In this document: one piece after another, positions 32,639-57,493 of the stretch
Position numbering within the stretch: the stretch's first letter is position 1
Layout: each line of letters opens with the position of its first letter
Source of the DNA: Patescibacteria group bacterium
GTDB lineage: Bacteria; Patescibacteriota; Microgenomatia; Daviesbacterales; UBA10151
Direction of reading: 5' to 3'
DNA: 64,000 nucleotides
NCBI GenBank assembly: GCA_943356485.1
Contig: CALRFD010000005.1
Coordinates: forward strand, 32,103-96,102
Position numbers and translations under genes: made by a program
Notes under the pieces: model-generated
The model's input: the letters and a program-made list of their open reading frames with translations, nothing else
Told to the model about the DNA's origin: nothing
Databases searched by the model: none

Positions 32639-32646
32639 TCTAAGTA

Positions 32647-36075: not shown

Positions 36076-36083
36076 AAGTCACT

Positions 36084-36413
36084 ATGAATAAAATAGTTAT
36101 TAAATTTTTTATATCAACTATATCAATTGCTTTTTTTTGGGGACTTGAATCAGGTTTTACACAGAGAAACGGGTATGAGTTAATAAAATCTATAATTTTT
36201 GCCTCTTCTTTTTTTATAGTTTTAACTAAAAAGTATAAACAATATATTCTTTGGATATCTACTTTCCTATTGATCAGTATGATTATTCTATACTTACTTT
36301 GGCAAATACAACTCTCTGATTTATTAGGAAGTATTGGATTCGGTATGTTTTTTATATTTATCTTAAGCTATTTGCCCGATTTAGTAAGGATTGGGTTTGT
36401 TAAAGATAAGTGA
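36084..36413 (+). CDS. Small 3-4 TM membrane protein, partner of the upstream giant membrane protein (paralog of 32282..32638)
   Basis: It is 109 aa and hydrophobic, with a conserved C-terminal LSYLPDLVRIGFVKDK. It occupies the same position relative to its giant gene, 8 bp downstream. Confidence 0.45.
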   Translation: MNKIVIKFFISTISIAFFWGLESGFTQRNGYELIKSIIFASSFFIVLTKKYKQYILWISTFLLISMIILYLLWQIQLSDLLGSIGFGMFFIFILSYLPDLVRIGFVKDK

Positions 36414-36570
36414 AATTGTATGTATATTTTAAGATATCTTTCTATTTTTAGTTTTTTGATATTGGATTTATTAATTATTACCGGGCATTTTGGTCTGGTT
36501 AATAAATCAGTGAATTTTGTTTTTATTTTAATTGTCATTAATGTAGTTTTTTATCTTTTAGAAATAAAGA

Positions 36571-39252
36571 ATGAATAAGTTTACCTTGGTTTTTATTTTT
36601 ATATTTGCTATTTTGTTTTGGGTTTTCTGGCTGCCTGGCCCCAGGGTTGCAACAGATTATTATTTAAGCACAAGCGAAATAGTTAAAGATTATACTTTTC
36701 CTTGGGGCTGGAGGGAGAATTCATCAGATGGATTAGGGACGTATACAGTCGGAACTTTATGGTCTCAACCGATACATCTTTTATCAAGAATTCTGCTGGA
36801 GCTTAATATATCTGTTGTTTGGATTACCAAGATTTTACTCATATTATTTCTAGCGGCAGGATTTTTTTCTATAAAAAGGCTACTGGGTTATCTGCAAATA
36901 AAGGGAATGGCAAAATATACAGGGGTTTTATTTTATTTACTTAACACGTATTTCTTGCTTTTGATAGATGGGGGACAGCTTTCTTTAGCCTTTGTGTATT
37001 GTTTAGTTCCTCTTTGTATATATTTTTATCTTAAGACAATGAGTGAGCAGAGCACTAAGAATAGATTAAATTTTATAGCCTCCCTTCTTACGGTTTCATT
37101 TTTAGATATAAGGTTTGTTTTTTTATTATTTTTAATCTTTTTTATTCACATTTTATTCAGTATGGCAAAAACTACTAAAAACACAAAATTAAAATTATTT
37201 AAAAATATTTTCATAACGGGAATATTAACAGTAATATTTTTAATCCTCGCCCATATATATTGGATTTTACCAACATTTTTTTCGCATAGCATTCAATTAC
37301 CTCAAACATATGAAAGAAGCTCGCAGGTAGATTTTTTAAGTTGGTCTTCCTTAGCCCATTCTTTATTTATGCAGCAGCCTCATTGGTACAAGAATATATT
37401 CGGAAATATTTCTAATGTAGGATTAGAGTTTTCAATGATTCCAATATTAGTATTTTTAACGATTATATTAAAAAGAAAGGATAAGGTTGTTGGGTTTTGG
37501 TTAATCATAGCCATTCTAGGAATATTTTTGAGTAAAGGTTCGAAAGAGCCATTCGGAGGGATTTACACTTGGGCATTTACTAATATTCCGGGGTTTTCTT
37601 TATTCAGAGATCCGGTTAAGTTTTATCTGCTAACAGCCCTTTCTTATAGCATCTTAATATCTATTTCAATAAGTGAGATTTCAAAGTTTGATACCAGCAA
37701 AAAATTTATTAATCGGCTTGTCAAACTTATCCCAATTCTTACATTAGTATATTTAATCCTGTTAGCTTGGCCGCTTTATTTTAAGCAGATGACAGGAATG
37801 TTTTCTGAACCAAGTTATGAACAGGAGTTTTTTCAACAGTCGGAAATCTTATCCAAGGACTTCGGCTTTTCCAGAATAGTTTGGATACCAGTTCAGAAAC
37901 CTCTTGGTTTTGCCAGCACCAACCATCCTTCAATCGGGGCGATAAGATTATCCCAAAAGCGGCCGTTTGAGGTAGGTATAACAGGTACCTATGAAACGCT
38001 TAATTTTTTAAGAGATACACCTTTTATGGGAGAGATTTTTGATATTGCAGGTATTGGTTATATTAATTATCCCTATCTTGATGTTAAAAGGGATGAGATG
38101 AGTTTTGATAATAGAAAATACTTTTATACATTTTTAAATCAGCTATCGAAACTTTCCTGGCTTGAAAAAGTACCAGAGTCAAAAATCCCTCTTTTTAAAA
38201 CTACCCATCATCAAGATAGATTTTTTATTGCGCCAAATGTTTGGTGGGTAATAGGGTCAGATAAAATTTATAATGAAGCAACTAAGAGTTCCAATCTAAA
38301 ACTTGCTAACAATGCTTTGATTTTCTCAGAAGAGTACTCAGGGTTAGGGGCGGAAATTAGTAATCTGCCAAATGTAAAGATTATCCTGCAAAATAAAACA
38401 GCCATTGACCTTGCAGCTTCATTTATACAGAAAACTTTAATTTTTCCAGCAAAGCAATTAAAGTTTGATCCGGATCTAAATTCCGGATGGTGGAAAAGGG
38501 AGGCCTCAGATTTGATTAATTGGAGGGATTTTTTGCAGTCTAAGTACGGTATTAATAACCAGGATTTTGATTTAGGCGGAGGATGGGCGGTTGGCGAAGG
38601 AAATAAACAGTTGAAAATTGAAGTTTCCAAAAAAGGAAAAGAGTCTTTGAGAGAAGGAAATGTTTTATTAGCTAGGGTAATGGAGAGCACCAGAAGCGGT
38701 TCATTAAGCTTTTATCAGGATGATCAGTTAATAGGAACTCTAAATACTGAAAAAGAAGGCAATAATATCAGGTGGTTTGAAATAGGCCAGTTACGTAAAT
38801 CAGACGGACAACTGAGGATTCTATCGTTTGGGGATATTAATGTAGTTAATGCCTTAGCAATTTTAGACGCTAAAGACTGGCAGGTATTAAAAAATAAAGC
38901 TGTTTTGCTTAAGGGTAGGATTATGGATTTTAATGAAATGAATGCAAGCAGTTCTGGCGTTCCTAAAATTTCTTACCAGAAAATAAATCCGACTAAATAT
39001 GTTGTTAATATTAATGGTTTAACAAAAAGCTCTCTTTTAATATTTTCCCAAAATTACGACAGATCCTGGAAAATTAATAATCAGGAACCGCTACCTATAT
39101 ATAGTTTGCTAAACGGATTTGCTGTAAATACAGATGGCCGCTATGTTATCGAATTTGAACCTCAAAAATATATTAATTTAGGGTTAATTATTTCTATATT
39201 CACAATGAGTATCCTGATTCTTCTCATAATTAAATACAGCAAACAACGGTGA
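36571..39252 (+). CDS. Large polytopic membrane protein (893 aa), divergent member of the giant GT-C-like family
   Basis: It has the same architecture: an N-terminal multi-TM domain, a soluble domain and a C-terminal TM helix. Related motifs are FSLFRDPVKF (compare RNPFEKLG) and the C-terminal FSQNYDRSWKI...EFEPQ (compare SETYHPGWKL...LEFTPE). Confidence 0.45.
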   Translation: MNKFTLVFIFIFAILFWVFWLPGPRVATDYYLSTSEIVKDYTFPWGWRENSSDGLGTYTVGTLWSQPIHLLSRILLELNISVVWITKILLILFLAAGFFSIKRLLGYLQIKGMAKYTGVLFYLLNTYFLLLIDGGQLSLAFVYCLVPLCIYFYLKTMSEQSTKNRLNFIASLLTVSFLDIRFVFLLFLIFFIHILFSMAKTTKNTKLKLFKNIFITGILTVIFLILAHIYWILPTFFSHSIQLPQTYERSSQVDFLSWSSLAHSLFMQQPHWYKNIFGNISNVGLEFSMIPILVFLTIILKRKDKVVGFWLIIAILGIFLSKGSKEPFGGIYTWAFTNIPGFSLFRDPVKFYLLTALSYSILISISISEISKFDTSKKFINRLVKLIPILTLVYLILLAWPLYFKQMTGMFSEPSYEQEFFQQSEILSKDFGFSRIVWIPVQKPLGFASTNHPSIGAIRLSQKRPFEVGITGTYETLNFLRDTPFMGEIFDIAGIGYINYPYLDVKRDEMSFDNRKYFYTFLNQLSKLSWLEKVPESKIPLFKTTHHQDRFFIAPNVWWVIGSDKIYNEATKSSNLKLANNALIFSEEYSGLGAEISNLPNVKIILQNKTAIDLAASFIQKTLIFPAKQLKFDPDLNSGWWKREASDLINWRDFLQSKYGINNQDFDLGGGWAVGEGNKQLKIEVSKKGKESLREGNVLLARVMESTRSGSLSFYQDDQLIGTLNTEKEGNNIRWFEIGQLRKSDGQLRILSFGDINVVNALAILDAKDWQVLKNKAVLLKGRIMDFNEMNASSSGVPKISYQKINPTKYVVNINGLTKSSLLIFSQNYDRSWKINNQEPLPIYSLLNGFAVNTDGRYVIEFEPQKYINLGLIISIFTMSILILLIIKYSKQR

Positions 39253-40538
39253 TTTTTTTATATAATAGCTATATGCTCAAATCAATTATTAAGAGTGCAA
39301 CTTTTAAACAATCGCAGGTAGCTATAATCAGTACCATAATTAACGGAACATTAGGGGCTTTATTCTATATTACCCTGGCTAGATTAGTAGGTCCCTCTAG
39401 CTTTGGATTATTAACTGTTTCCTTGACCACCCTGGTTTTAATCGCAGATATTGTTGATATTGGTACAAACACAGGTTTAATCCGTTTTGTCTCTTCAAAT
39501 TTAACAACGGATAGGAACAAGGCATATAGGTTCTTAAAGTTAAGTTTGGAGATTAAATTAATAGTATGGCTGATAACTTTTGTTGTTATTTTTTCCCTTG
39601 CTCCTTTCTTAGCGACGAATATTTTTCATAAGAGTTCTCTTGTTAGCCCGCTACGTTTGGTTGGCTTTGGAGTAGGGGGAGCTTTGCTTTTTACTTTTGC
39701 TACTTCAATGTTGCAGGCGTTTCAAAAATATTTTCTTTGGAGTCTAGTAAATATTACTACCAATTTTTTAAGATTACTTCTGATACTTATCTTAGGTTTT
39801 TATCTAAAACTTAATGTTCAGAGCAGCTTGGCTACATATATTGCACTTCCAATGTTTGGTTTTTTTATGACGCTTTTATTAGTTCCTGCTCGGGAAATAT
39901 TTTCTGCTAAATCAGAATTTCTTTTACTAAAAGAATTACTTAAATATAATTTACCGGTGGCAATATTTACTATAATTGCTGCTTTCTCTTCAAAATTAGA
40001 CACTTTTCTAAGCGCTACACTTCTTTCCAGTCGGGAGGTTGGAATTTATGGAGCCGCAAGCCAGCTTGTACAAGTTGTGCCTCAGGTGGTTGCAGGTTTA
40101 GGTTTAGTTGCCGCACCCAAGTTTTCTTCCTTTACGAGTGAACATCAGATGGTAATTTATTTAAAAAAACTACAACTACTTGTTTCAGGGTTAGTACTAA
40201 TAGGCATCTTATTGCTTCCTTTAGCAATCTATCTGATTCCGGTATTGTTTGGGCAAGCTTATCAGGATTCGATATCAATATTCATAATTTTATTTTTTGC
40301 TATGCTTGTATTCCTTTTTTCACTGCCGGTTCACAGTAGTGTAATTTTTTATTTTGGCAGACCAGATGTTTTTATTTGGGTATCAATTGGTAATTTAATT
40401 TTGGTCGGAGGACTAGGGTATTTAATGATTCAAAATTTAGGTATGATAGGTGCAGCAGTTTCTGTTTTAATAGGTACAGCCTTTAGCTTTTTATATCCTT
40501 TGGTTTGGCTGTTAGTTAAATTAAAAAAAAATAAATGA
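39249..40538 (+). CDS. Wzx-like oligosaccharide flippase / polysaccharide biosynthesis protein (MOP superfamily)
   Basis: It is 429 aa with about 12 TM helices. The N-terminus SQVAIISTIINGTLGALFYITLARLVGPSSFGLL is typical of the Polysacc_synt/Wzx family. Confidence 0.6.
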   Translation: MIFLYNSYMLKSIIKSATFKQSQVAIISTIINGTLGALFYITLARLVGPSSFGLLTVSLTTLVLIADIVDIGTNTGLIRFVSSNLTTDRNKAYRFLKLSLEIKLIVWLITFVVIFSLAPFLATNIFHKSSLVSPLRLVGFGVGGALLFTFATSMLQAFQKYFLWSLVNITTNFLRLLLILILGFYLKLNVQSSLATYIALPMFGFFMTLLLVPAREIFSAKSEFLLLKELLKYNLPVAIFTIIAAFSSKLDTFLSATLLSSREVGIYGAASQLVQVVPQVVAGLGLVAAPKFSSFTSEHQMVIYLKKLQLLVSGLVLIGILLLPLAIYLIPVLFGQAYQDSISIFIILFFAMLVFLFSLPVHSSVIFYFGRPDVFIWVSIGNLILVGGLGYLMIQNLGMIGAAVSVLIGTAFSFLYPLVWLLVKLKKNK

Positions 40539-41335
40539 AAATTTGGGTAAATACGATTGTAAATAATGAAGAGAACTTTTTATGGTTTAGCGTAATGAGT
40601 GTAGTTGATTTTGTAGATAAGATTTTAATCTGGGACAGTGGGTCAACAGATAACAGTGTTGAAATAATTAAAAAGCTAAAAGAGCTTAAGGGAGATAAAA
40701 TTGAGTTTAAACAGGTGGGGAGGGTAAGCGGTTTGGAGTTTACGAAGATGCGTCAAAAAATGCTGGATCAGTCAAAAAGTGACTGGATCATAATTCTGGA
40801 TGGTGATGAGATCTGGTGGCAAGCCTCTATTAAAAAAATTATTTCTGAAATTATCAAGCGTGGCAGGCAGGTAGAGGGAATTGTTGTGCCGATGGTAGTT
40901 CCTGTTGGAGATATATATCATATTCAAGATGAGAGAGCAGGTAGATATAATATTCTAGGTAAAAAAGGACACTTTAGTTTAAAAGCTTTCAGTAAAGCTA
41001 TCCCCGGTCTTCACGCAGATTGGCCTTATGGGAAAGAGGGATTTTTTGACAAAGATAATCGTTTAATCCAGGAAAGAGAAAAGATCGTTTTTTTGAATGC
41101 CCCCTTTCTACACCTTACACATTTAAAAAGATCGAATTCTAAAAGGCTTTATAATAAGTTTAAATATGAATTAGGTAGATTAGTTCCGGAGGGATTTAAG
41201 TTTCCGGAAATCTTATATAGGGAATTTCCGGAAATGATCTCTTCCCCCTGGAAAAAAATTTCCGGTATAGATTATATTAAAGCAATAATCCAAACACCAT
41301 TAAGATGGATTAAAAGGAGGATTTATTATAGATAA
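40535..41335 (+). CDS. GT-A-like glycosyltransferase (family 2-like)
   Basis: It has LIWDSGSTDNSVEII and a DxD-like ILDGDEIWW. It is 266 aa. Confidence 0.5.
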   Translation: MKIWVNTIVNNEENFLWFSVMSVVDFVDKILIWDSGSTDNSVEIIKKLKELKGDKIEFKQVGRVSGLEFTKMRQKMLDQSKSDWIIILDGDEIWWQASIKKIISEIIKRGRQVEGIVVPMVVPVGDIYHIQDERAGRYNILGKKGHFSLKAFSKAIPGLHADWPYGKEGFFDKDNRLIQEREKIVFLNAPFLHLTHLKRSNSKRLYNKFKYELGRLVPEGFKFPEILYREFPEMISSPWKKISGIDYIKAIIQTPLRWIKRRIYYR

Positions 41336-41348
41336 ATCAAGTCAAACT

Positions 41349-42020
41349 TTGGAATCAATGAGTCAAGCTGTTTGGTATAACAGATGGGTTGAAGGGCAAT
41401 TTTATAAATATCTTTCCGGGAATATCCTAGAAGTCGGTTGTGGTATAGCTAACTTTAGTCAATATCTGTCTAAATATGGAAAATTAACCGCGATAGATAT
41501 AAATAGAGAATATATAAAGCAGGCAAAAAAGAAAGCGGGTATAGATGTAAGAGTAGGATTTGGGGATATTGAGAATGGCCAATATTTTTTTAAAGAACGA
41601 AATTTCAATACTGTTGTTTGTATCAATGTCCTGGAACATATAAATAATGATAAAAAGGCTCTAAAAAATATTGCGGAGTTGTTATTACCAAAAGGCTATT
41701 TGGTTTTGCTTGTCCCGGCTGGTAAATTTCTCTATAATCTAATAGATAGGTCAATCGGTCATTTCCGGCGTTACGAAAAAAATGAACTTTTGCTGCAGTT
41801 AGAGGAAGCAGATTTTGAGATAGTTAAATCAAAAAGGCTAAACTTCTTAGGGGCTTTGGGTTGGTTTATTTCCGGTAGGGTATTTAAAGACAGTAGTGTT
41901 GGTGAAGGGAAGATTAGAATATTTAATTTAATTGCCCCCTTATTTTTAAAGATTGAAAGTATAATTGAGCCGCCCGTTGGGACTTCAATATTAATCATAG
42001 CCAGAAAGAAAGAGAAATGA
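41349..42020 (+). CDS. Class I SAM-dependent methyltransferase
   Basis: It carries motif I ILEVGCGIANFS and NVLEHI...LLPKGYLVL. Confidence 0.75.
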   Translation: MESMSQAVWYNRWVEGQFYKYLSGNILEVGCGIANFSQYLSKYGKLTAIDINREYIKQAKKKAGIDVRVGFGDIENGQYFFKERNFNTVVCINVLEHINNDKKALKNIAELLLPKGYLVLLVPAGKFLYNLIDRSIGHFRRYEKNELLLQLEEADFEIVKSKRLNFLGALGWFISGRVFKDSSVGEGKIRIFNLIAPLFLKIESIIEPPVGTSILIIARKKEK

Positions 42021-42715
42021 AATTATCAATTATTATTCCTGTCTATAACGAGGAAAAGACAGTGGAAGAAATTCTAAAACGGGTTTTAGCAGTCAAGTTG
42101 CCTTTAAAAATAGAAAAAGAGATAATTGTTGTAGATGATGGTTCATCTGATAATACGCCAGTAATTATAAACAAGTTTACCGGGGTAAAAAAAATATTCC
42201 ATCAAAATAATTTAGGTAAAGGCTCTGCCATAAAAACCGGGCTGAAAGTTGCAACAGGAGAGGTAATTGTTATTCAGGATGGTGATTTGGAATATGATCC
42301 CCTTTATTACCCCCTCTTACTAAAACCAATCCTGGATAAAAAGGCAGATGTTGTATATGGCACCAGGTTGATTAATTATCCTTTGAGGTTATGGGGAGAA
42401 AATAAGACTATTCTACCTTTGCATTTGGTTGCAAACAGATTTTTGACGGTCTTAACTAATATCCTTTATGGTTCAAACTTAACCGATATGGAAACTTGCT
42501 ATAAAGTCTTTAGAAGAAGTTGTATTAGCGGAGTTGAATTAATCTCGAGTGGGTTTGCTTTTGAACCTGAAATAACTGCAAAATTTCTGAAAAAAGGATT
42601 AAAGATCATAGAAGTCCCTATTAAAGTTAAACCAAGAACTCATAAAGAAGGTAAAAAAATTAGCTGGTTTGATGGACTTGAGGCTGTCTTTACCTTGTTT
42701 AGATATAGGTTATGA
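42017..42715 (+). CDS. GT2 glycosyltransferase, DPM1/ArnC-like polyprenyl-phosphate sugar synthase (soluble form)
   Basis: It has LSIIIPVYNEEKTV...IIVVDDGSSDNT and IQDGDLEYDP. It is 232 aa and is immediately followed by a GT-C membrane enzyme. Confidence 0.7.
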   Translation: MKLSIIIPVYNEEKTVEEILKRVLAVKLPLKIEKEIIVVDDGSSDNTPVIINKFTGVKKIFHQNNLGKGSAIKTGLKVATGEVIVIQDGDLEYDPLYYPLLLKPILDKKADVVYGTRLINYPLRLWGENKTILPLHLVANRFLTVLTNILYGSNLTDMETCYKVFRRSCISGVELISSGFAFEPEITAKFLKKGLKIIEVPIKVKPRTHKEGKKISWFDGLEAVFTLFRYRL

Positions 42716-44223
42716 ATAGAAAAGGTATTTTCCTGCTAATTTTGATTTTAGCTCTCTCCTTAATTCTAAGGTTTTATCGTTTACATGATATTTATGTTTT
42801 TAACTTCGATGAGGAATATCAGGCTAGCTATGCCTGGACCTTAGTCAAAGACGTTCATCCAATTTGGATAGGGGTTAGTTCCTCTTTTTTAGATTTTTAT
42901 CTGGGACCTTATTTTACTTATTTTACTGCCGTTCTTCTTTATTTTTCTTCAGGAGACCCGATGTTAACTGCTTATTTTGCAGCTTTTTTGGGTGTAGTAA
43001 CCACAGGTATAATCTTTTTCGTCGGCCGTAAAATATTTAATAACCAGATTGGATATATTGCTTCCCTACTTTATGCCACAATGCCCATTTTTGTTTTTTT
43101 TGATCAGAAATATTGGAATCCGATGTTTACGCCAATAATTGTGTTATTTTTATTTTTGACGCTCTACTACAATTTAAAATCCTACTGGTTTTGGATAGGA
43201 GCCGCTGTCTTATTTGGAACTGTGCTTAATACGCATTTGGGTCCGGCACCACTATTTTTAATAGGAGTTTACCAATTTTTCAAAGGAGGTTATTGGAAGT
43301 CCATTAAATTAATTATTATCAGCTTTTTGGCATTTCTAATATTTTATTGGCCTCTAATAGTCTTTGACTTTAATCATAATTTCAGTAATATCAGCAGTTT
43401 TTTAAGAATTGGTAGCAGTTTGAGCCAATCAAAGATAGCATTTAACCCTCAAGTAAAGCTTCAATCATTAGCAGATACGTTGGGCAGATTCTGGTATTTA
43501 AAAAGTGGAAATCCAAACGCTGATGAGATTAACTTCTCCTGCAATTCCCTAACCGTAAAGCCGGAATTTAAAGATGTTGGTCGGTACGCTAAAAGAACAA
43601 GCGCGCCGCTTGTGTTATCTATTTTAAGCTTGATATTAATTTTTTATTACTCTTGGGTAAATTACAACAGTCAAAAATTTGAGCTAAAATTATTAACTGC
43701 TTTTTTGATGGTGGCAATTTTCTCTTTTTTACTTTACCCCGGGGCTTCTTCTGAGTACTATACTATGTCAATTTTGGTCTTGTTTACCTTTGTGCCGGGA
43801 ATATTAATTAGTCAATCAAACAAAAAACTGGCAGTAGGTTTGTTCGGAATAATTATTATATTCTCTATTTTAGGTATTAACACCGTTCTTCATACTTCAG
43901 ATGAATTTAGTTTAGGCCCAAAGAAAAAACTAATTGCTGAAGTAATGAAGATTGTAGGTCAAGAGGACTTTGCCATTGAAGGAAGGGGAATATGTCATAA
44001 TTATGAAGGCTGGAGATATTTATTTAAAGTCTATGGCAGGGTTCCAACTCAGAGCTATACTGATGATAGCCTTGGCTGGTTATATCCCAAAGAGATAGGA
44101 AAGGAAAAACCTGCCATCACTGTTATCCTTTCTGAAGACAGGATTCCGCTTAAAGAAGATCTATCCAGCCTTACCTCTGTCAGATCAGGAGGGTATAGGG
44201 CGTATATCAGGAAAGACAGGTAA
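42712..44223 (+). CDS. PMT/ArnT-like GT-C membrane glycosyltransferase (GT39/83-like), paralog A
   Basis: It is a multi-TM protein. FNFDEEYQASYAW matches the PMT-family loop-1 FDEvhfgxfaxyY motif. Its C-terminal 143 aa are identical to paralog B (46686..48215). Confidence 0.6.
   Translation: MNRKGIFLLILILALSLILRFYRLHDIYVFNFDEEYQASYAWTLVKDVHPIWIGVSSSFLDFYLGPYFTYFTAVLLYFSSGDPMLTAYFAAFLGVVTTGIIFFVGRKIFNNQIGYIASLLYATMPIFVFFDQKYWNPMFTPIIVLFLFLTLYYNLKSYWFWIGAAVLFGTVLNTHLGPAPLFLIGVYQFFKGGYWKSIKLIIISFLAFLIFYWPLIVFDFNHNFSNISSFLRIGSSLSQSKIAFNPQVKLQSLADTLGRFWYLKSGNPNADEINFSCNSLTVKPEFKDVGRYAKRTSAPLVLSILSLILIFYYSWVNYNSQKFELKLLTAFLMVAIFSFLLYPGASSEYYTMSILVLFTFVPGILISQSNKKLAVGLFGIIIIFSILGINTVLHTSDEFSLGPKKKLIAEVMKIVGQEDFAIEGRGICHNYEGWRYLFKVYGRVPTQSYTDDSLGWLYPKEIGKEKPAITVILSEDRIPLKEDLSSLTSVRSGGYRAYIRKDR
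43783..44214 (+). repeat. 432-bp near-identical direct repeat, copy 1 (3' end of GT-C paralog A)
   Basis: 430 of 432 nt are identical to 47778..48209. The only differences are two adjacent bases in caatcaaa versus caactaaa. The flanks are strongly diverged. Confidence 0.9.
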
Positions 44224-44224
44224 T

Positions 44225-45355
44225 TTAGAGGATTTTCTTCAATACTTCAACCATATAATCTATTTCACTATTTTTAAGCTGAGGGTAAATTGGTAGCCTG
44301 ATTAAGGTGGAGGAAACCTCTTCTGTAATTGGGCAGGATCCTTTTTTGTAACCCAGTTGTTTCCCCATAACTGATGTATGGAGCGGTAGGAAATGAAATG
44401 AGGCTTCGACTCCGTATGATTTAAGCTCTTTAACAATGCGACTGCGGGACGACTTTGGCACTCTGATGGCAAAAATATGCCAGTTTGGATCAGTTCCTTG
44501 ACTAACCTGAGGCAGAACTATTTTTGAAGAAAGTGATCTTAGCTTTGTTAATAGATACTCAGCCTTTTTTTGTCTTAAAGAGGTAATCTGGCTCAATTTT
44601 TTCATTTGGACTAGCGCAATCGCAGATAAAATATCCGATAAAATTAAACTGCGCCCGACTCTAACCCATGAATACTTTCCCCTTTCCCCCCGCATAAACG
44701 AAGAACGGTTAGTACCCTTTTCCCTGATAATCTCGGCAATTTTATTAATTTTTGAATTATTTGTTACAAATGCACCTCCTTCACCTGAAGCAGCATTTTT
44801 TGTGCCATGAAATGAGTAACATCCTATCAGACCAAGGGTTCCCAAGTATTTACCATAATACTTTGCTCCCAGCGCGTGGGCTGCATCTTCTATGACAATA
44901 AGTTTATAAGTGTGGGCGATCTTATTAATTTCTTCCATGTCGGCGGCCATACCGGCGTAGTGAACAACCATAATTGCTTTAGTTCTTTTGGTGATTAATT
45001 TTTCTATATCTTTCGGGTTTATATTATAAGTTTGAATATCAATGTCAGCAAAAACAGGTTTTCCTCCGGCTAAGAGTATGGCATTGGCGCAGGATGAAAA
45101 AGTAAATGAAGGTAATATCACCTCATCTCCTTTGTTTAAGAAAAGGGCAAAGGCTAATTCAAGAGAAGCAGTGCCTGAACCTGTGGGTAGTGCGTATTTA
45201 GAGCCTACTATTTGTGATATTTCTTTAGAAAGAAGTTCACTATAATTTAGATCCCCTACTCCTGTACCGCTACGCATAGCCATGACTGCTGCTTTTTCTT
45301 CGTCTTTTCCCCAGAATGGTTTATGTAAAGGTATGAGGTATTTATTTTGAGACAT
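44225..45355 (-). CDS. DegT/DnrJ/EryC1-family PLP-dependent sugar aminotransferase (ArnB/PglE-like), second copy
   Basis: It has the FHGTKN Lys motif and GEGGAFVTNN. It is 376 aa. Confidence 0.85.
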   Translation of the reverse strand: MSQNKYLIPLHKPFWGKDEEKAAVMAMRSGTGVGDLNYSELLSKEISQIVGSKYALPTGSGTASLELAFALFLNKGDEVILPSFTFSSCANAILLAGGKPVFADIDIQTYNINPKDIEKLITKRTKAIMVVHYAGMAADMEEINKIAHTYKLIVIEDAAHALGAKYYGKYLGTLGLIGCYSFHGTKNAASGEGGAFVTNNSKINKIAEIIREKGTNRSSFMRGERGKYSWVRVGRSLILSDILSAIALVQMKKLSQITSLRQKKAEYLLTKLRSLSSKIVLPQVSQGTDPNWHIFAIRVPKSSRSRIVKELKSYGVEASFHFLPLHTSVMGKQLGYKKGSCPITEEVSSTLIRLPIYPQLKNSEIDYMVEVLKKIL

Positions 45356-45361
45356 TTTTAG

Positions 45362-46084
45362 TTATTTTTTTGGAATTTGAGACCTAAAACGGTATATTTT
45401 TTTTAGGTAATCCAAGGTATCAGGTATCAGATTGACTGTGGATTTTTTGTCAGTTCGTCTGATAAAAAGAACCGGTATCTGACTAATTCTTAATCCTTTC
45501 CAAAAAGAACGGGCGCAGATTTCCGTATCCCAGAACCAACCCTTCTCTGTAATCTTTGAGATAACCGGCAAAATTGCTTCTCTTTTGAAAAATTTATAAC
45601 CTGCTTCCGTATCATCAATGGGTAAGCGTAGAAGCCAATGAACTATTAGTTTATAACCTTTGGAAGAAATCACCCTGGAGATAGCTGATAAATTTTTTTC
45701 ATAAAATCTGTTTCCAACAACTAAATCAAAACCTTTTTCCAGTTCCTGAATAAACAAAGGAATATAGTCTGCAGAAACCTCTAAATCAACATCTAAAAAA
45801 CCACAATAAATGCCTTTTGCCCAGTTGATCCCATCACTAACTGCTTTTCCCCTGCCTTCATTTTTGCTATGTTGAATTAAGCGGCTGTTTTTAAAACCCG
45901 GTAATAATTTTTGTATTTTTTGCAGGGTGTTATCCGTACTTTTATCTTCAACAAAAATTAATTCCCAACTCTTTGTCAATTTTTGTAAACTCTTATAAAT
46001 TATTTTTAAGTTTTGCTCAAGAATTGAACCTTCATTATACAGAGGAATTATTAATGAAAGGTAAGGCTTTGACATTGGCTTCAT
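45362..46084 (-). CDS. GT2 glycosyltransferase, ArnC/DPM1-like polyprenyl-phosphate sugar synthase
   Basis: It carries LSLIIPLYNEGSIL...LIFVEDKSTDNT and FLDVDLE. It is 240 aa. Confidence 0.7.
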   Translation of the reverse strand: MKPMSKPYLSLIIPLYNEGSILEQNLKIIYKSLQKLTKSWELIFVEDKSTDNTLQKIQKLLPGFKNSRLIQHSKNEGRGKAVSDGINWAKGIYCGFLDVDLEVSADYIPLFIQELEKGFDLVVGNRFYEKNLSAISRVISSKGYKLIVHWLLRLPIDDTEAGYKFFKREAILPVISKITEKGWFWDTEICARSFWKGLRISQIPVLFIRRTDKKSTVNLIPDTLDYLKKIYRFRSQIPKK

Positions 46085-46143
46085 TCTAATTAAATGTATA
46101 TATAATGTAAAGGTATGTTATATAATTTTTATAGAACAAATCT
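46085..46143. promoter_or_regulatory. Divergent promoter gap with two TATATAAT-like -10 boxes
   Basis: The sequence reads gtatatataatg and gttatataattt in the 59-bp gap between the divergent GT2 (-) and acetyltransferase (+) genes. Confidence 0.3.
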
Positions 46144-46689
46144 ATGCAGGCAATTAAAGAAATAGGATTCAAAAAGGCATTTAAATTTTTCCTGTTTAGT
46201 TTTTTCCAACTTTTTTTTGGCTTAATGATTTTGCCCCAACTTAGAAAAGTGCTATTGCAGATTGGCGGAGCAAAAATCGGCAGAGATTCTATTATTATGG
46301 GAGTACGGTTTTTTAACTGGCATCATCAAGGATTAAGTGGGGTTAATATTGGAAAAGAATGTTTTATTGGTGATGAGACTCTGATTGATTTATATAATAA
46401 AGTAGTTTTAGAAGATCAGGTGACAATCGCTCAGAGGGTCACCCTTTTAACCCATATGAATGTGGGTTATAGAAACCATCCCTTGCAAAAATATTTTCCG
46501 TCCAGCAGCGCACCGATTCTTTTAAAGAGAGGATCGGTGATTGGAGCTTCCGTAACTATTTTACCCGGGGTGGTTATCGGAGAAAATTCAATGGTTGCAT
46601 CAGGAGCAGTGGTTACAAAAGATGTCCCAGATATGACTTTAGTAGGTGGAGTTCCTGCTAAGGAAATAAGAAAATTAGATGAAAAATGA
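46144..46689 (+). CDS. Hexapeptide-repeat acyltransferase (WcaF/LacA-like sugar O-acetyltransferase type)
   Basis: An N-terminal hydrophobic segment is followed by left-handed beta-helix repeats (IGGAKIGRDSIIMG...IGKECFIGDETLID...). It is 181 aa. Confidence 0.7.
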   Translation: MQAIKEIGFKKAFKFFLFSFFQLFFGLMILPQLRKVLLQIGGAKIGRDSIIMGVRFFNWHHQGLSGVNIGKECFIGDETLIDLYNKVVLEDQVTIAQRVTLLTHMNVGYRNHPLQKYFPSSSAPILLKRGSVIGASVTILPGVVIGENSMVASGAVVTKDVPDMTLVGGVPAKEIRKLDEK

Positions 46690-48215
46690 AGATCTTAAAT
46701 TTAGTAAAGAAGTATAGAGTTTATCTTTTATTTGTCCTGATTATAGCCATTTCTATTTTTCTTAGATTTCACCGTTTGGGCGATATTTATGTTTTTAACT
46801 TAGATGAAGAGTACCAAGCGAGTTATGCCTGGACAGAAGTTTTGCACCCGCACAGGATTTGGATTGGTCTGGTAGCGGCTGCGCTGGAGTTTTATATTGG
46901 GCCTTATGTGGTTTATCTGACTGCAATCTTGCTTGGTATATCACATGGAGACCCACTAATCACCGCTTATTTCGCTGCCGGCTTAGGAGTGGTAACTACA
47001 GCAGCAATATTCTTTATCGGGAAGAAGGTTTTTAATTTAACTACAGCAGTTTTGGCCGCCTCTCTTTATGCCACAATGCCCATTTTTGTTTTTTTTGATC
47101 AGAAATATTGGAATCCGATGTTTGGTCCTTTAGTAACAGTATTACTATTTTTAAGCTTAATACAAACTAAACAATCAAAATGGTGGTGGGTTGTTTTTGC
47201 CGGTCTGGCCGGAATAATATTTGAAACTCATTTACCGCCATTTCCACTTTTATTGATTGGAGGATGGGGTTTTCTAAAGCATCGATATTGGCAGGATCTA
47301 AAACTACTTACTTTTTGTATAGTTGTATTTTTAATATTCTATTGGCCGCTTTTAGTTTTTGATTTTAATCATGATTTCAGTAATTTAAAGGTTGTTACCA
47401 GACTTTTTGTAACAAATAGCCAGTCAAAGGTATCTTTTAATCCAGGAGCTAAATTCGGCACGCTTTTTGATAGTATGGGTAGATTTTGGTATTTAAGACC
47501 CGGCTCCCCGAATGCAGATGAGGTTAATTTTGGCTGTTCATCGCTATCTTTATCAACCGGTTTTGAAACAATAGATAAATATACCAGGAGAACATATGCG
47601 CCATTTTGGTTATCTTCAATCTCCCTTATATTGCTTTTAATCTTTTTAAGAAAGAATCTAAGGAATGCGGACGATAATTGTAGGATTTTAGCACTATTTT
47701 TAACTATTTCCGGATTTTTCTTCCTGATTTATCCCGGAGGATCTTTTGAATATTATGCTCTGATATTTTTGACTTTATTTACCTTTGTGCCGGGAATATT
47801 AATTAGTCAACTAAACAAAAAACTGGCAGTAGGTTTGTTCGGAATAATTATTATATTCTCTATTTTAGGTATTAACACCGTTCTTCATACTTCAGATGAA
47901 TTTAGTTTAGGCCCAAAGAAAAAACTAATTGCTGAAGTAATGAAGATTGTAGGTCAAGAGGACTTTGCCATTGAAGGAAGGGGAATATGTCATAATTATG
48001 AAGGCTGGAGATATTTATTTAAAGTCTATGGCAGGGTTCCAACTCAGAGCTATACTGATGATAGCCTTGGCTGGTTATATCCCAAAGAGATAGGAAAGGA
48101 AAAACCTGCCATCACTGTTATCCTTTCTGAAGACAGGATTCCGCTTAAAGAAGATCTATCCAGCCTTACCTCTGTCAGATCAGGAGGGTATAGGGCGTAT
48201 ATCAGGAAAAAATAA
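46686..48215 (+). CDS. PMT/ArnT-like GT-C membrane glycosyltransferase, paralog B
   Basis: It has FNLDEEYQASYAW. The N-terminal ~360 aa are diverged from paralog A, but the 3' 432 bp are nearly identical to it. Confidence 0.6.
   Translation: MKILNLVKKYRVYLLFVLIIAISIFLRFHRLGDIYVFNLDEEYQASYAWTEVLHPHRIWIGLVAAALEFYIGPYVVYLTAILLGISHGDPLITAYFAAGLGVVTTAAIFFIGKKVFNLTTAVLAASLYATMPIFVFFDQKYWNPMFGPLVTVLLFLSLIQTKQSKWWWVVFAGLAGIIFETHLPPFPLLLIGGWGFLKHRYWQDLKLLTFCIVVFLIFYWPLLVFDFNHDFSNLKVVTRLFVTNSQSKVSFNPGAKFGTLFDSMGRFWYLRPGSPNADEVNFGCSSLSLSTGFETIDKYTRRTYAPFWLSSISLILLLIFLRKNLRNADDNCRILALFLTISGFFFLIYPGGSFEYYALIFLTLFTFVPGILISQLNKKLAVGLFGIIIIFSILGINTVLHTSDEFSLGPKKKLIAEVMKIVGQEDFAIEGRGICHNYEGWRYLFKVYGRVPTQSYTDDSLGWLYPKEIGKEKPAITVILSEDRIPLKEDLSSLTSVRSGGYRAYIRKK
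47778..48209 (+). repeat. 432-bp near-identical direct repeat, copy 2 (3' end of GT-C paralog B)
   Basis: It is the counterpart of 43783..44214 at an offset of 3995 bp. A second identical 60-bp patch lies at the same offset (43069..43128 and 47064..47123). Confidence 0.9.
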
Positions 48216-48217
48216 TA

Positions 48218-49162
48218 ATGAAAATTGTATTTCTTAGCAGATATCAAAACAGTATTCAACGCGGAGCAGAAACTTTCGTTAGAGAATTAAGCAAGCAGTT
48301 AAGTCTAAGTCATGAAGTTAGTATTTTAGTTGGAGAAAAGGCCGATAGCTTAAGCGAAATTTTAAAAGGTGATTATCAAATTGTAGTAGCAGTTAATGGT
48401 GGGGCGCAAAGCCTGAAAGCTTCTATTGGGAGATTAAGAAAAAAGTATAAGTTGATAATTACCGGGCAGGCAGGGATTGGCAGGGGAGAAATTTTTAACC
48501 TGGCGGTTGCCAGGCCGGATTTATATGTGGCGCTGACAGACGCTATGTTTAAATGGGCAAAACCTTGGGCTTGGGGGAGTAAGGTTGTTAAAATATCAAA
48601 CGGGGTAGATATAGAAAAATTTACTCCGTTTGGAAAAAAGATGAGTCTTAATTTAGTAAGCCCGGTTATTTTATCAGTCGGGGCGCTGGTTGATTATAAG
48701 CATCATGAAAGAAGCATTATTGCAGTCTCTAAGTTAAATAAGGGCTCACTTTTGATAGTCGGACAGGGACCAAAGGAGAGTAGGCTTCAGGGTTTAGGTG
48801 ATAGGCTATTAAAATCCAGGTTTAAAATATTACATGCAGATTATCAGGATTTGCCAAAAATTTATCGAAGCGCTGACCTTTTTGTTTTGCCGTCCTGGTC
48901 AAGGGAGGCGTTTGGTATAGTATACTTGGAGGCTATGGCTTCTGGACTGGGAATCGTAGCACCAGATGATCCATCAAGAAGGGAAATTATTAGTGAGGCT
49001 GGAATATTAACAGATGTGCTAGATGATAATAAATATACTGAGGCGATCGAAAGGGCACTTCTAATTGATTGGCAGTCTAAGGCTTTAAAACAGGCAAAGC
49101 TTTTTAGTTGGGATAAAATTGGGAGAAAATATGAAGAAGAGTTTGAAAAATTATTAAAATGA
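48218..49162 (+). CDS. GT4 (GT-B fold) glycosyltransferase
   Basis: The C-terminal domain has FGIVYLEAMASGLGIVAPDD, an EX7E-like motif. Confidence 0.7.
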   Translation: MKIVFLSRYQNSIQRGAETFVRELSKQLSLSHEVSILVGEKADSLSEILKGDYQIVVAVNGGAQSLKASIGRLRKKYKLIITGQAGIGRGEIFNLAVARPDLYVALTDAMFKWAKPWAWGSKVVKISNGVDIEKFTPFGKKMSLNLVSPVILSVGALVDYKHHERSIIAVSKLNKGSLLIVGQGPKESRLQGLGDRLLKSRFKILHADYQDLPKIYRSADLFVLPSWSREAFGIVYLEAMASGLGIVAPDDPSRREIISEAGILTDVLDDNKYTEAIERALLIDWQSKALKQAKLFSWDKIGRKYEEEFEKLLK

Positions 49163-49923
49163 ATATGATTTCAGCAGTTATTGTTACTTTTAATGAAGAA
49201 AAGAAACTGGAAGACTGTTTAAAGAGCATTTATAAAAAGGTAGATGAAATAATAATAGTTGATTTAGGCTCAACTGACAAAAGTCTGCAGATTGCATCCA
49301 AATACGAGGCTAAAGTTTTTAAACATGAAAATGTTGACTATGTTGAAAAGGTTAGGGATTTTTCTATTTCCAAAGCAAATGGTGAGTGGATTTTAGTTTT
49401 GGATCCTGATGAAAGGATAACACATTCACTTTTTGAAAAATTAAAGGAGATAATATCAGAGGGTAAATATACAGCTGTAAACATCCCTCGAAAAAATATT
49501 TTTTTTGGCCGATGGATAAGGCATACAAACTGGTGGCCGGATAGACAAATTAGGTTTTTTAAAAAAGGTAAAGTAAGCTGGAGCAGTAAAATACACAGTT
49601 ATCCGAAGGTTTATGGGTTGAGTCTGGAATTAATTTCCAGACCGGAATTATCAATAACGCATTATGGTTATGATAATATCCAACAGTTTATAGACAGGCA
49701 AAACAGGTATTCCTCAATTGAAGCGGAAAATAGATTTAACCTGGGAGAGAGATTTTCCTTTTTTAAACTTGGCTGGTTTCCTTTAAGGGAGTTTATAGTC
49801 AGGTTTATAAGACACGGCGGTTATTTAGACGGAAAATATGGATTTATTTTAACTTATTTAATGATGGTATATCAATTGATGGTAATGATCAAAATTTGGG
49901 AGTTGAGGAAAAGGGGAAAATGA
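49159..49923 (+). CDS. GT2 glycosyltransferase
   Basis: It carries ISAVIVTFNEEKKLEDCLKSI...IIVDLGSTDKS and LDPDE. Confidence 0.7.
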   Translation: MNMISAVIVTFNEEKKLEDCLKSIYKKVDEIIIVDLGSTDKSLQIASKYEAKVFKHENVDYVEKVRDFSISKANGEWILVLDPDERITHSLFEKLKEIISEGKYTAVNIPRKNIFFGRWIRHTNWWPDRQIRFFKKGKVSWSSKIHSYPKVYGLSLELISRPELSITHYGYDNIQQFIDRQNRYSSIEAENRFNLGERFSFFKLGWFPLREFIVRFIRHGGYLDGKYGFILTYLMMVYQLMVMIKIWELRKRGK

Positions 49924-51350
49924 TTTGGTTGATATTATTTTTAAGTCTAATACTTAGGATAGTGAGTTTAAATCAAAGCCTTTGGTTAGATGAGGCAATT
50001 AATGTCATGGCGGCGCGAAGCTATTCTTTTTTAGGAATTTTAACAGAGTATGCTAAAGCTGATTTTCATCCACCCCTATACTTTATAATTATTTGGATCT
50101 GGACAAAACTATTCGGCTTTTCTGAAGTTTCAGCCAGATTACCTTCAGTTATTTTTGGCTTATTAACAATCTGGCTGGTCTTTTTAATTGGCCGGAAGTT
50201 ATATTCTAAGACATTAGGCATCTTAGCTGCTTTATTATTGGCACTTAATCCACTGCATATTTATTACAGTCAGGAAGCAAGGATGTATTCTATGGCAGCT
50301 TTTGCAGTGGTGCTTAACTTACTTTTTTTTATTTTTTTATTAAAAAAAGAAAGGATAAATTTAGTCTTTATTATTTTTAGTAATTTTTTAATATTAATGT
50401 CAGATTATGTTGCATATTTGATTTTTCCATCTCAGTTATTATTAATATTACTATTAAAGGAAAGGAGCCTTTTAAAAAGATGGGGAGTTGGTTTGCTTAT
50501 CTCTTTAATCTTAATTATTTTTTGGATACCTGTATTTTTAAGTCAAATAAGCATAGGTCTTAATATTTCTAAAGATATTCCGGTCTGGAAAGCCGTTGTG
50601 GGCGCTTTTGATTTAAAAAACATAGCCTTAACTTATATTAAATTTATAATTGGAAGAATTAGCCTGGATAATAAATTAATTTATGTAAGTATACTTATGC
50701 CCGTTTGCGCATACTTTGGCTATTTCTTATTTAGAGGGTTAAAATTTGCTTCCAATTTTAATAGAAAATTATTACTGATATTAACTATAGTTCCTATATT
50801 TTTAGCATCAGCAATTTCGATAGTAGTGCCTATATACAGCTATTTTAGATTACTCTTTCTATTGCCTATTTTCCTTATCATAGTTTCATCTGGGATCTTG
50901 TCATTTAAAGCCAGAAGCAGACACTTTTTTTTAATTGTTTTTATCTTGATTGAGACTTTTTCGTCTATGACTTATTTATTAAATACTACTTTTCAAAGGG
51001 AAGACTGGAGAGGTTTAGTTACTTTTCTTAAATCCAAAAACAGCGTACCCGTTTTATTTGAAAGCTCCGGTGCTTTTTCACCGTTTGACTACTACGGGGG
51101 AAAAACAATTAAAGGAGTTGGTGCGCTGAAGAACTTTCCAGCCAGAGATTTAAAGGATATAAAAGACTTAAAAACAGAACTAGGTAGTAAAAACGATGTT
51201 TTTTTGATAGATTATTTAGTCGATATATCTGATCCTTCAAGATTGGTTTCGAAAAGTTTATTATCTTTAGGATATAAACAGATGAGAACTTATAACTTTA
51301 ATGGGGTTGGATTTGTATATTATTTTAAGAAAGATGAAAATGCGCAGTAA
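49920..51350 (+). CDS. PMT/ArnT-like GT-C membrane glycosyltransferase (GT39/83-like)
   Basis: The N-terminus has LWLDEAINVMAARSYSF (a DE loop-1 motif) and HPPLYF, in a multi-TM protein. I placed the start at ATG 49920, an ATGA overlap, rather than at 49896. Confidence 0.65.
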   Translation: MIWLILFLSLILRIVSLNQSLWLDEAINVMAARSYSFLGILTEYAKADFHPPLYFIIIWIWTKLFGFSEVSARLPSVIFGLLTIWLVFLIGRKLYSKTLGILAALLLALNPLHIYYSQEARMYSMAAFAVVLNLLFFIFLLKKERINLVFIIFSNFLILMSDYVAYLIFPSQLLLILLLKERSLLKRWGVGLLISLILIIFWIPVFLSQISIGLNISKDIPVWKAVVGAFDLKNIALTYIKFIIGRISLDNKLIYVSILMPVCAYFGYFLFRGLKFASNFNRKLLLILTIVPIFLASAISIVVPIYSYFRLLFLLPIFLIIVSSGILSFKARSRHFFLIVFILIETFSSMTYLLNTTFQREDWRGLVTFLKSKNSVPVLFESSGAFSPFDYYGGKTIKGVGALKNFPARDLKDIKDLKTELGSKNDVFLIDYLVDISDPSRLVSKSLLSLGYKQMRTYNFNGVGFVYYFKKDENAQ

Positions 51351-52701
51351 GATATTACTAATTTTAATTATAATTTTCCATATTTTTATTTTATATAAAC
51401 TGATATTTTTCCCTTATCCGGAGTTTTTTGTTTATCCTTATTTAACTAATCACGGACTTTTGCCTTATCAACAAATTTTAGATCAGCATTTTCCCGGTTT
51501 AATGTTTCTGCCAATTAATTTTGATAACTTAGGGATGAATAATGAGCATATTGCCAGAATTTGGCTCGTAATGGTAGTTGTTTTGACCCAGGTGCTTATT
51601 TACTGGAGCGCTAAAAATATACTGAAAAGCTCTTACATTGCGTTGCTGGTAAATCTTCTTTATCTGATATGGCAGCCTTTTTTTGAAGGGTGGGTACTTT
51701 GGATTGATACTTTTCTTCCTTTATTTTTAATACCGGCCTTTTATTTAACTTATAAATTTATAGTTGAAGGTAAAAAGAGTATTAAACTGTCTTTTTTTAT
51801 AGGTTTACTACTAGGAATAAGTGTTGTTTTTAAACAGGTTGTTTTACCTTTGACAGGACTTAGCTTTATATACTTACTCTGGCAGAAAAAAAGTATTAAA
51901 TTTGCCTTACCTTTTTTGCTTGGTTTTTTACCCCCGGTTTTAATGATGTTATTTTTTCTTTATCAAATTGGGGTAATTAAGGATTTTTGGTATTGGACAG
52001 TTGTTTTTAATTTGACAACTTTTGCAGAATATGGCAGAAAATTACCCTTTCTTAGCGGTTTAGTCAGAGTTGGTTTTGTTTTATTTTTTGGTTTATCAGT
52101 CTTTTTTTGCAGGGACAGGAAGCTTTATTTAACCCTAGCTCTTTTTACCTTAGGTTCTTTAATGGCTATTTATGCGCGTTTTGACTTTGTGCATTTTCAG
52201 CCAGCTCTACCTTTTATATTAATATCTACTGTCGTTGGTATGAATTCAATAAAAGATAAAATTTATTTTAAAGGGCTAGTCCTCATTTATTTAGCTGTTA
52301 TTTTTTGGTGGATGTTTATTTTTTATAAAGGCCATCTGGTAAATAAAGTTATGTTTTTTGACACTCAGACAAAAGAAATTGCAGCAAAGGTCAGTCGATA
52401 TACAAAGCCAGGGGATAAAATATTTATTTTCGGTACAGTGCCTCATATTTACCAGATGACAAATACCATGCCAGCAGGGGACGTCTTCGTTTTTCAGTTC
52501 CCTTGGTTTTTAAGAGTAACTGAGGATAGGTTGTTGGAGGGATTAAAAGAGGATAAGCCCCGGATTGTTGTTTCGGATAGAACAGTTGAGATTGAAGGTA
52601 GTAAAATAGTGGATTTTGCAAAGAAGTTGGACACTTATATACAACAAAACTATAGGCAAATAGATCAGGTTGGTGATACTAAGATTTTACGCCGGTTGTA
52701 G
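51334..52701 (+). CDS. Polytopic membrane protein, function unknown
   Basis: It has about 10 hydrophobic helices. I placed the start at the internal Met MKMRSKILLIL (51334), overlapping the upstream stop by 17 bp. The ORF track starts it at 51301. Confidence 0.5.
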   Translation: MKMRSKILLILIIIFHIFILYKLIFFPYPEFFVYPYLTNHGLLPYQQILDQHFPGLMFLPINFDNLGMNNEHIARIWLVMVVVLTQVLIYWSAKNILKSSYIALLVNLLYLIWQPFFEGWVLWIDTFLPLFLIPAFYLTYKFIVEGKKSIKLSFFIGLLLGISVVFKQVVLPLTGLSFIYLLWQKKSIKFALPFLLGFLPPVLMMLFFLYQIGVIKDFWYWTVVFNLTTFAEYGRKLPFLSGLVRVGFVLFFGLSVFFCRDRKLYLTLALFTLGSLMAIYARFDFVHFQPALPFILISTVVGMNSIKDKIYFKGLVLIYLAVIFWWMFIFYKGHLVNKVMFFDTQTKEIAAKVSRYTKPGDKIFIFGTVPHIYQMTNTMPAGDVFVFQFPWFLRVTEDRLLEGLKEDKPRIVVSDRTVEIEGSKIVDFAKKLDTYIQQNYRQIDQVGDTKILRRL

Positions 52702-52745
52702 TATCAATCTGATAGAATGTATTTGCAGGTTTTGCCAATTTACTT

Positions 52746-54883: not shown

Positions 54884-54895
54884 TTTAAGCCGCTT

Positions 54896-55510: not shown

Positions 55511-55512
55511 AA

Positions 55513-57474: not shown

Positions 57475-57493
57475 AGATGTTTTAATTTAAGAT

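Follow-up and report, generated by a model that had tools for sequence, protein, structure and literature searches.

How two membrane glycosyltransferase genes that are otherwise clearly diverged come to carry an almost identical 3' end is the question raised by a 64-kb stretch of the metagenome-derived Patescibacteria contig CALRFD010000005.1 (the whole stretch analysed, hereafter the window). The two genes, here called A and B, are tandem paralogs of the GT-C type, and an initial annotation had pointed to a 432-nucleotide (nt) tract at their 3' ends and a separate 60-nt patch further upstream, which it ascribed either to a recent exchange between the tandem paralogs (gene conversion or homologous recombination) or to an assembly collapse or chimera. 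It seems very probable that the tracts come from recent non-reciprocal homologous copying between A and B, in two separate events.

The coordinates of the 3' tract and its 430 identical positions out of 432 were confirmed base by base, as was the 60/60 identity of the patch in the window (Table 1). From the start to the stop regions, A and B can be aligned without any insertion or deletion, the offset being 3995 nt throughout. The 3' tract makes up the 3' 28% of the gene and contains an exact core of 397 nt; identity stops at 44214/48209, which is 3-9 nt short of the stop codons, while the dinucleotide difference at 43816-43817 is probably the 5' edge of the converted segment. Outside the tracts A and B are only 55-60% identical at the nucleotide and 45-57% at the amino-acid level, in line with the divergence annotated for their N-terminal two-thirds, and the 654 nt separating the patch from the 3' tract (55% identity) are as diverged as the remaining gene.

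Synonymous divergence along the alignment makes the contrast sharper. Outside the tracts the same codon is used for only 42-47% of the identical residues, and synonymous sites are therefore close to saturation, whereas inside the tracts the same codon is used in 17/17 (patch) and 140/140 (3' tract) cases, so that selection at the protein level cannot explain the identity. This identity is far above chance; no comparable repeat was found elsewhere in the 64-kb window, all others being at most 85% identical and at most 121 nt long.

The tracts in other assemblies of the same population

Since the contig is metagenome-derived, the tracts might exist in no single genome, two diverged 3' ends having been collapsed or strain variants having been stitched together. 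Exact-protein look-ups of A and neighbouring genes led to seven contigs, which belong to four further short-read assemblies from the same population, i.e. three ENA assemblies made with MEGAHIT (ERZ27280317, ERZ27280321 and ERZ27280322; k-mer size k = 141) and one Logan assembly (ERR5863124; k = 31). The seven contigs jointly cover positions 32017..57837 of the window at 99.96-100% identity. The exact gene A protein is also encoded on the ENA contig L001 (ERZ27280321), which runs from 5' of A across the entire A tract into the aminotransferase gene, A's own next gene. On the other side, L004 (ERZ27280317) leads from A's last 79 nt through the DegT, GT2 and acetyltransferase genes into B and stops at 47953, after 141 nt of the core, while L007 (ERZ27280317) begins exactly at 47813 and takes the whole core into the GT4 gene that follows B.

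The remaining contig ends fall into the same pattern: on the A side, L008 breaks off at 43958, after exactly 141 nt of the core, and the Logan contigs (L005 and L009 among them) have ends or starts at 43122, 44185 and 47117, each 30 nt inside a shared segment. Ends at k or k-1 into the shared segments are the forks that a de Bruijn graph would give for a repeat present in the reads. The junctions of both copies with their own flanks are independently reproduced, by two assemblers at two k sizes, and a chimera would require two switch points per copy, with an alternative 3' end of B that was never assembled. Two observations speak for an artefact, namely that the exact gene B protein is recorded from this contig only, and that A in the window carries the base of B at two sites where the other assemblies differ, so that some mixing of paralog variants is possible. 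Wholesale collapse or chimerism is nevertheless very unlikely, and of the assembly alternative in the initial annotation only a possible small effect at these two sites is left. An exact 50-nt pattern from the core, searched for in JGI metagenomes, gave no match.

The two sites (43092 and 43980) are the only substitutions between the window and the other assemblies in 25.8 kb, and both lie in gene A inside the tracts. For two random substitutions, the chance of both falling into the 984 nt of tract sequence and both matching the paralog is about 1.6e-4, i.e. (984/25821)^2 x (1/3)^2. With the bases of the other assemblies the patch is identical at 59/60 and the 3' tract at 429/432 positions, and these figures, rather than 60/60 and 430/432, probably represent the population consensus. 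In the Logan sample the patch is indeed split by a single-nucleotide polymorphism (SNP) at 43092/47087, because L005 breaks at 47117, which is 30 nt (k-1) past the A/B SNP at 47087, and not at about 47093.

If the tracts and the bases of the window at both sites are all real, conversion would be ongoing in the population, with further rounds in the strain represented by the window. The pattern is exactly as conversion gives it, in that the only two substitutions both lie in tracts and both change A to the base of B. Even so this is a doubtful possibility: the sites are 888 nt apart with diverged sequence between them, which would take two extra events in a strain otherwise free of substitutions over 25.8 kb, C was found at 43092 in 3/3 other assemblies, and bubble merging or read mis-mapping between near-identical segments yields the same pattern without any biology. 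Most likely, the bases of the window at 43092 and 43980 reflect an assembler or polisher homogenising paralog variants, which is favoured over extra conversion because no further events are needed. The bases of orthologs at the two positions were uninformative on the ancestral state.

Related genomes and the origin of the tracts

The gene order flippase, GT2, methyltransferase, GT2, A, DegT (minus strand), GT2 (minus strand), acetyltransferase, B, GT4, GT2, PMT_2 is kept in two relatives, L002 (GCA_964649615.1) and L003 (Logan SRR22388342), and partly kept in L036. When the own A is compared with the own B in L002 and L003, the patch is identical at 47-50/60 positions and the 3' region at 64-72%; when all A and B genes of three genomes were compared in pairs, the 14 remaining comparisons gave 46-50/60 and 60-72%, with a longest exact run of 38 nt. 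Three further tandem pairs of different arrangement (L038, L039 and L040) have exact runs of 20-22 nt. The mosaic, which the initial annotation had proposed to look for in related genomes, was thus not found in any of the five tandem pairs (L002, L003, L038, L039 and L040; longest exact runs 20-38 nt), and because these pairs lack such a tract, the tracts of the window are considered recent and lineage-specific.

The same comparisons bear on whether a constraint at the nucleotide level (such as a regulatory site, an RNA embedded in the genes or extreme selection on codons) could keep the two copies identical. The patch and part of the 3' tract do coincide with the protein motifs that are best conserved in the family, but in all 14 other A/B comparisons these very regions reach only the low identities given above, and a search of 42000..49000 against Rfam gave no match at E <= 0.1, which leaves such a constraint with a vanishingly small probability.

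A segment of higher identity does occur in L002, where the own A and B (approximately 7190..7370 vs 11200..11380) reach 91-93% identity along some 180 nt, which encode GRGICHNYEGWRYLFK. It corresponds to about nt 1215-1350 of the gene alignment, in the C-terminal domain, where orthologs are at most 86% identical in any comparison, and it may be what is left of an earlier conversion in that domain that has since decayed.

Relatives also differ in what lies between the family members. L037 (9290..12498) has a single A-type copy between GT2 and GT4, without the cassette (i.e. without the genes between A and B), while in L038 (453..3495), L039 (786..3870) and L014 two family members are directly adjacent. 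With the two copies separated by the three-gene segment, this makes at least three arrangements in related genomes, which implies that the segment between A and B was gained or lost within the group. A scan of genome contigs returned 23 loci, mostly with one copy, among which only L013 (the same as L002) has the A-cassette-B order.

It could accordingly be asked whether the identical 3' ends are the scar of an insertion, the DegT-GT2-acetyltransferase-B segment having entered by a single Campbell-type crossover of circular DNA in the 3' region of a GT-C gene. Both the variable arrangements and the exact position of the identical 3' ends on either side of the variable segment would fit. Nonetheless, the same two-copy order exists in L002, L003 and L036, in which the B orthologs are 68-76% identical N-terminally and the 3' ends are diverged, and because of this the two-copy arrangement must predate the identity of the tracts. 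Furthermore, a single crossover between diverged partners gives hybrid rather than identical repeats, and the separate 60-nt patch would be left unexplained. An insertion scar is therefore highly improbable.

In one of the relatives, the metagenome-assembled genome (MAG) binchicken_co227_340, an A-like gene is split over L014 (1..2295) and L029 (7001..7757) with an overlap of exactly 55 nt; its 3' part has a gap, in which residues 413-466 are missing, and a B-like gene follows directly 3' without the aminotransferase/GT2/acetyltransferase segment. When breaks inside family members were checked in three MAGs, the L029/L014 break was considered as a possible A/B repeat and rejected, being a 55-nt graph overlap. 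Many of the 'binchicken' co-assembly MAG records (L013-L015, L017, L020, L021, L025 etc.) are titled 'uncultured Gammaproteobacteria bacterium' and carry a locus of the Daviesbacteria/Patescibacteria type, which in L002/L013 has kept the gene order; the Gammaproteobacteria label looks wrong or generic.

Recent gene conversion between the tandem paralogs, as one of the two options of the initial annotation, is supported because the tracts are in register, identical at synonymous sites, joined to their own flanks, absent in relatives and agreed upon by independent assemblies. A and B would be old tandem paralogs of a Daviesbacteria-specific GT-C family, between which at least two non-reciprocal copying events, from one paralog into the other, took place in the lineage of the window. 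One event would have replaced some 400-430 nt, beginning at the conserved FTFVPGILIS region and reaching the last codons that the open reading frames (ORFs) have in common, and the other would have been confined to a micro-tract of 60 nt within FFDQKYWN, the motif that is conserved most. A single long heteroduplex with patchy repair, joining both tracts, was considered and rejected, given that the 654 nt between them are as diverged as the rest.

The tracts start and end where the paralogs were already most alike, as seen in relatives, which may indicate that short exact matches seeded pairing and strand invasion; recombination of the RecA type would be the likely route. The converted parts carry little or no signal of A or B type and would be interchangeable, so that they could be replaced without functional cost, while the diverged transmembrane core, by which the two enzymes are presumably adapted to different lipid-linked sugar donors, was left untouched.

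The direction of copying was addressed with diagnostic columns, profile hidden Markov models of the A and B types (with leave-one-out) and binned log-odds. The patch has a log-odds of 2.9, inside the range of B (0.1-4.6) and outside that of A (6.8-14.4), and the P in NPMF is a B-type residue; despite this, its Met is found only in A-type homologs. Copying of the patch from B to A is thus weakly indicated.

Several points weigh against gene conversion as described here. The profiles do not separate donor and recipient of the 3' tract, since that of the A type gives 256 bits and that of the B type 255-257 bits, where family members usually score about 10 bits higher on the profile of their own type; the soluble domain that the tract encodes is without type signal. 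The tract also reaches the very end of the homology, which makes the distal resolution point invisible. Only two relatives of the same gene order gave DNA for both copies, the exact gene B protein is on record solely from the window's own contig, and the support from other assemblies consists of contigs that cover the unique part of B, the 397-nt core and the GT4 gene in pieces.

A further proposal gives the repeats a role. The 432-nt direct repeats bracket 3.56 kb, made up of the genes for the aminotransferase, the GT2 and the acetyltransferase together with the N-terminal two-thirds of B, and, in frame as they are, they might be kept identical by conversion and serve as a recombination handle through which a surface-glycan modification is gained or lost in the population at high frequency. 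A single crossover between the repeats would excise the sugar-modification module and leave an intact gene, A-like save for the last codons, with GT4 directly 3' as arranged in L037; the type-less C-terminal domain would then be the long-term trace of the handle. It is the arrangements in relatives that speak for such a handle, which must be considered improbable.

Predicted fold of the two enzymes and the domain encoded by the 3' tract

Both proteins match the Pfam family PMT_2 below its gathering score of 26.1 bits (A 22.6 bits, B 21.1 bits), although many of their homologs have a precomputed PF13231 match. At least 270 homologs of A and B exist, the named ones being annotated as 'glycosyltransferase family 39' of Candidatus Daviesbacteria or Patescibacteria, while the 90% protein cluster of gene A has a single member. 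No NCBIfam model matches A or B, and a profile of the A/B family gave no match at E <= 1 against the sequences in the PDB.

An AlphaFold2 model of B was built from 19 homologs, with a mean predicted local distance difference test (pLDDT) of 79.6 and a predicted TM-score (pTM) of 0.85. Its 19 top Foldseek matches are all GT-C enzymes (ArnT, AglB, PglB, STT3, Pmt4, ALG12 and AftB), with E 2e-6 to 4e-3, probability 1.00 and TM-scores of 0.40-0.57, the best being ArnT (5f15). A and B are accordingly predicted to have a GT-C fold of the ArnT/AglB/PglB/PMT type, so that the original GT-C assignment is supported even with a PMT_2 score under the gathering threshold; it is the fold comparison that places the family, since sequence searches gave no placement. 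In GT-C enzymes the acidic motif of the first outer loop is catalytic. The motif FN.DEEYQ sits in the loop after helix 11-28 of the B model, and its residues F37, D40, E41, E42 and Q44 are invariant in 19 homologs. The motif of the patch, FFDQKYWN, is likewise conserved, with D, Q, K, Y, W and N invariant in the family.

In the model (numbering of B), the 3' tract begins near the end of helix 367-374, takes in 378-400 as the last helix in the membrane and continues with an alpha/beta domain (403-509). The initial annotation had taken the shared C-terminal 143 amino acids as a probable periplasmic domain, which applies to part of them: about 105 residues form a soluble alpha/beta domain that is predicted to lie outside the cytoplasm, judging from the eleven membrane helices counted in the model, while about 38 residues (the last 1.3 helices) are in the membrane. 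Patescibacteria are usually regarded as being without an outer membrane, and for that reason 'extracytoplasmic' may suit the domain better than 'periplasmic'.

Among 34 typed homologs the N-terminal two-thirds separate the A and B types cleanly, and the soluble C-terminal domain carries no type signal. It is plausible that the N-terminal part sets the donor specificity and that the C-terminal domain has an acceptor-side or common role. From the context of the adjacent GT2 genes, with their matches below cut-off, A and B may use polyprenyl-phosphate-linked sugar donors, and they may well transfer different lipid-linked sugars, which would explain the continued divergence of the membrane cores.

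Gene neighbourhood and comparison with known systems

The features of the locus are collected in Table 1. A small GT2 gene precedes each of A and B, and B is additionally grouped with a WecE-type aminotransferase and a hexapeptide acetyltransferase. The 3' flanks are unrelated, A being followed by the DegT gene (on the minus strand) and B by a GT4 gene.

Table 1. Genes, shared tracts and discordant positions of the A/B locus, in window coordinates
Feature	Position	Strand	Evidence or remark
GT2 resembling polyprenyl-phosphate sugar synthases, immediately 5' of A	42017..42715	+	Pfam; NCBIfam AglJ, PgfS, ArnC, PpgS, all below cut-off
Gene A, 503 aa, predicted GT-C membrane glycosyltransferase, A type	42712..44223	+	ORF; weak PMT_2; names of homologs
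60-nt patch, A copy, encoding LYATMPIFVFFDQKYWNPMF	43069..43128	+	60/60 in the window
Discordant base in patch	43092	+	A in the window has T (= base of B); L001, L008 and L009 have C; synonymous
3' tract, A copy	43783..44214	+	430/432 vs B copy; exact core 43818..44214
Dinucleotide difference	43816-43817	+	TC in A, CT in B; Ser vs Leu; sole A/B difference inside the 432-nt tract of the window; reproduced in L001 (A) and L004 (B)
Discordant base in 3' tract	43980	+	A in the window has A (= base of B); L001 has G; synonymous
DegT/WecE-type sugar aminotransferase, between A and B	44225..45355	-	Pfam DegT_DnrJ_EryC1, E = 2e-97; NCBIfam NF008687, 386 bits (cut-off 375)
GT2 resembling polyprenyl-phosphate sugar synthases, between A and B	45362..46084	-	Pfam Glycos_transf_2; NCBIfam PgfS, AglJ, ArnC-type, all below cut-off
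Hexapeptide-repeat acetyltransferase, immediately 5' of B	46144..46689	+	Pfam, NCBIfam
Gene B, 509 aa, predicted GT-C membrane glycosyltransferase, B type	46686..48215	+	ORF; weak PMT_2; AlphaFold2 model and Foldseek
60-nt patch, B copy	47064..47123	+	matched 100% by L004, L005 and L006
3' tract, B copy	47778..48209	+	exact core 47813..48209

The window (G+C 30-38%) is, by its domain content, almost wholly an envelope-glycan island of very large size. Its GT-C type genes number at least eight and comprise, besides A and B, PMT_2-like genes (49896, 51301 and 57494) and AftD-like genes (22192, 28800 and 32647); there are also a Wzy-like (Wzy_C) gene at 56056, a MOP flippase at 39249, two carbamoyltransferases (2170 and 19359) and many GT2 and GT4 genes. 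An island that covers nearly the entire window is striking in a lineage of small genomes.

Two giant AftD-like GT-C paralogs (28800..32285, 1161 amino acids, and 32647..36075, 1142 amino acids) are colinear at an offset of 3865-3883 nt and have only 70-75% identical patches of 71-121 nt in common, without a conversion tract, while a third relative (22192..24333) has a 71-nt patch in common. The gene at 26573..28810 encodes a GT2 fused to two methyltransferase domains, and its two methyltransferase halves carry a 53-nt stretch that is 85% identical, 669 nt apart (27740 and 28409), which indicates an internal duplication.

One of the PMT_2-type GT-C genes (ORF 49896..51350) is intact in the window (484 amino acids) and split into ORFs of 140 and 317 amino acids in contig L007 (2108..3537), where a T-run at about 50332 (window 50325..50340) is shorter by a single T. 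This could be homopolymer slippage (possibly an on/off variation) or an assembly error.

Among known systems, tufA/tufB is the classic experimental case of gene conversion between paralogs. Concerted evolution and gene conversion of bacterial paralogs are also documented in a survey (PMC6053082) and of a study giving rates for the E. coli rrn operons (PMC8022953). A and B resemble tufA/tufB and the rRNA operons in the non-reciprocal copying within a genome, in tracts that are identical at synonymous sites and in paralogs that are there closer to each other than to their orthologs. They differ in that conversion here is partial and domain-limited (the 3' 28% and a 60-nt patch) between paralogs otherwise about 50% diverged at the protein level, in that it is recent instead of long-lasting, and in the host, a metagenome-derived genome of the Patescibacteria (Candidate Phyla Radiation, CPR).

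Gene conversion within repetitive families of surface and virulence genes is known, for example, from Neisseria pilE/pilS. For antigen loci of M. tuberculosis it is described in PMC13061034. With both of these, A and B have in common the mosaic tracts in envelope-related paralogs, which short-read assembly handles poorly; in fact, the short-read assemblies of the present population fragment exactly at the tracts. In contrast to these loci, A and B give no hint of programmed conversion, with neither silent cassettes nor a dedicated sequence element and with two copies only, and it is the conserved rather than the variable parts that were converted, which amounts to homogenisation and not diversification.

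As for function, the ArnB/ArnC/ArnT and GtrA/GtrB/Gtr(type) modules combine a GT-C transferase with a GT2 that makes the polyprenyl-phosphate sugar and with a cytoplasmic enzyme for sugar modification. The GT2 genes at the A/B locus differ from these in that all of them score below the family cut-offs, and no GtrA-like flippase adjoins A or B. The likeness lies in the small AglJ/PgfS/ArnC/PpgS-like GT2 before each GT-C gene, in the WecE/ArnB-type aminotransferase and the acetyltransferase that accompany B, and in the predicted fold of B, which is best matched by ArnT.

Gene conversion between bacterial paralogs is an ordinary and well-documented process, and its current understanding is unchanged by the present case. 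What A and B would add is homologous recombination active within a small Patescibacteria genome, where it shapes envelope-glycosylation genes, as well as an instance of modular evolution in a GT-C family, in which paralogs diverge in the membrane core but can still exchange the last helix and the outer C-terminal domain. They also call for some caution with metagenome-assembled genomes, for the repeat is very probably real and yet the contig probably carries the base of the other paralog at two sites. Next to the systems compared above, A and B are a recent, partial and domain-limited example from an uncultured Patescibacteria lineage, in a GT-C family for which there is no curated model.

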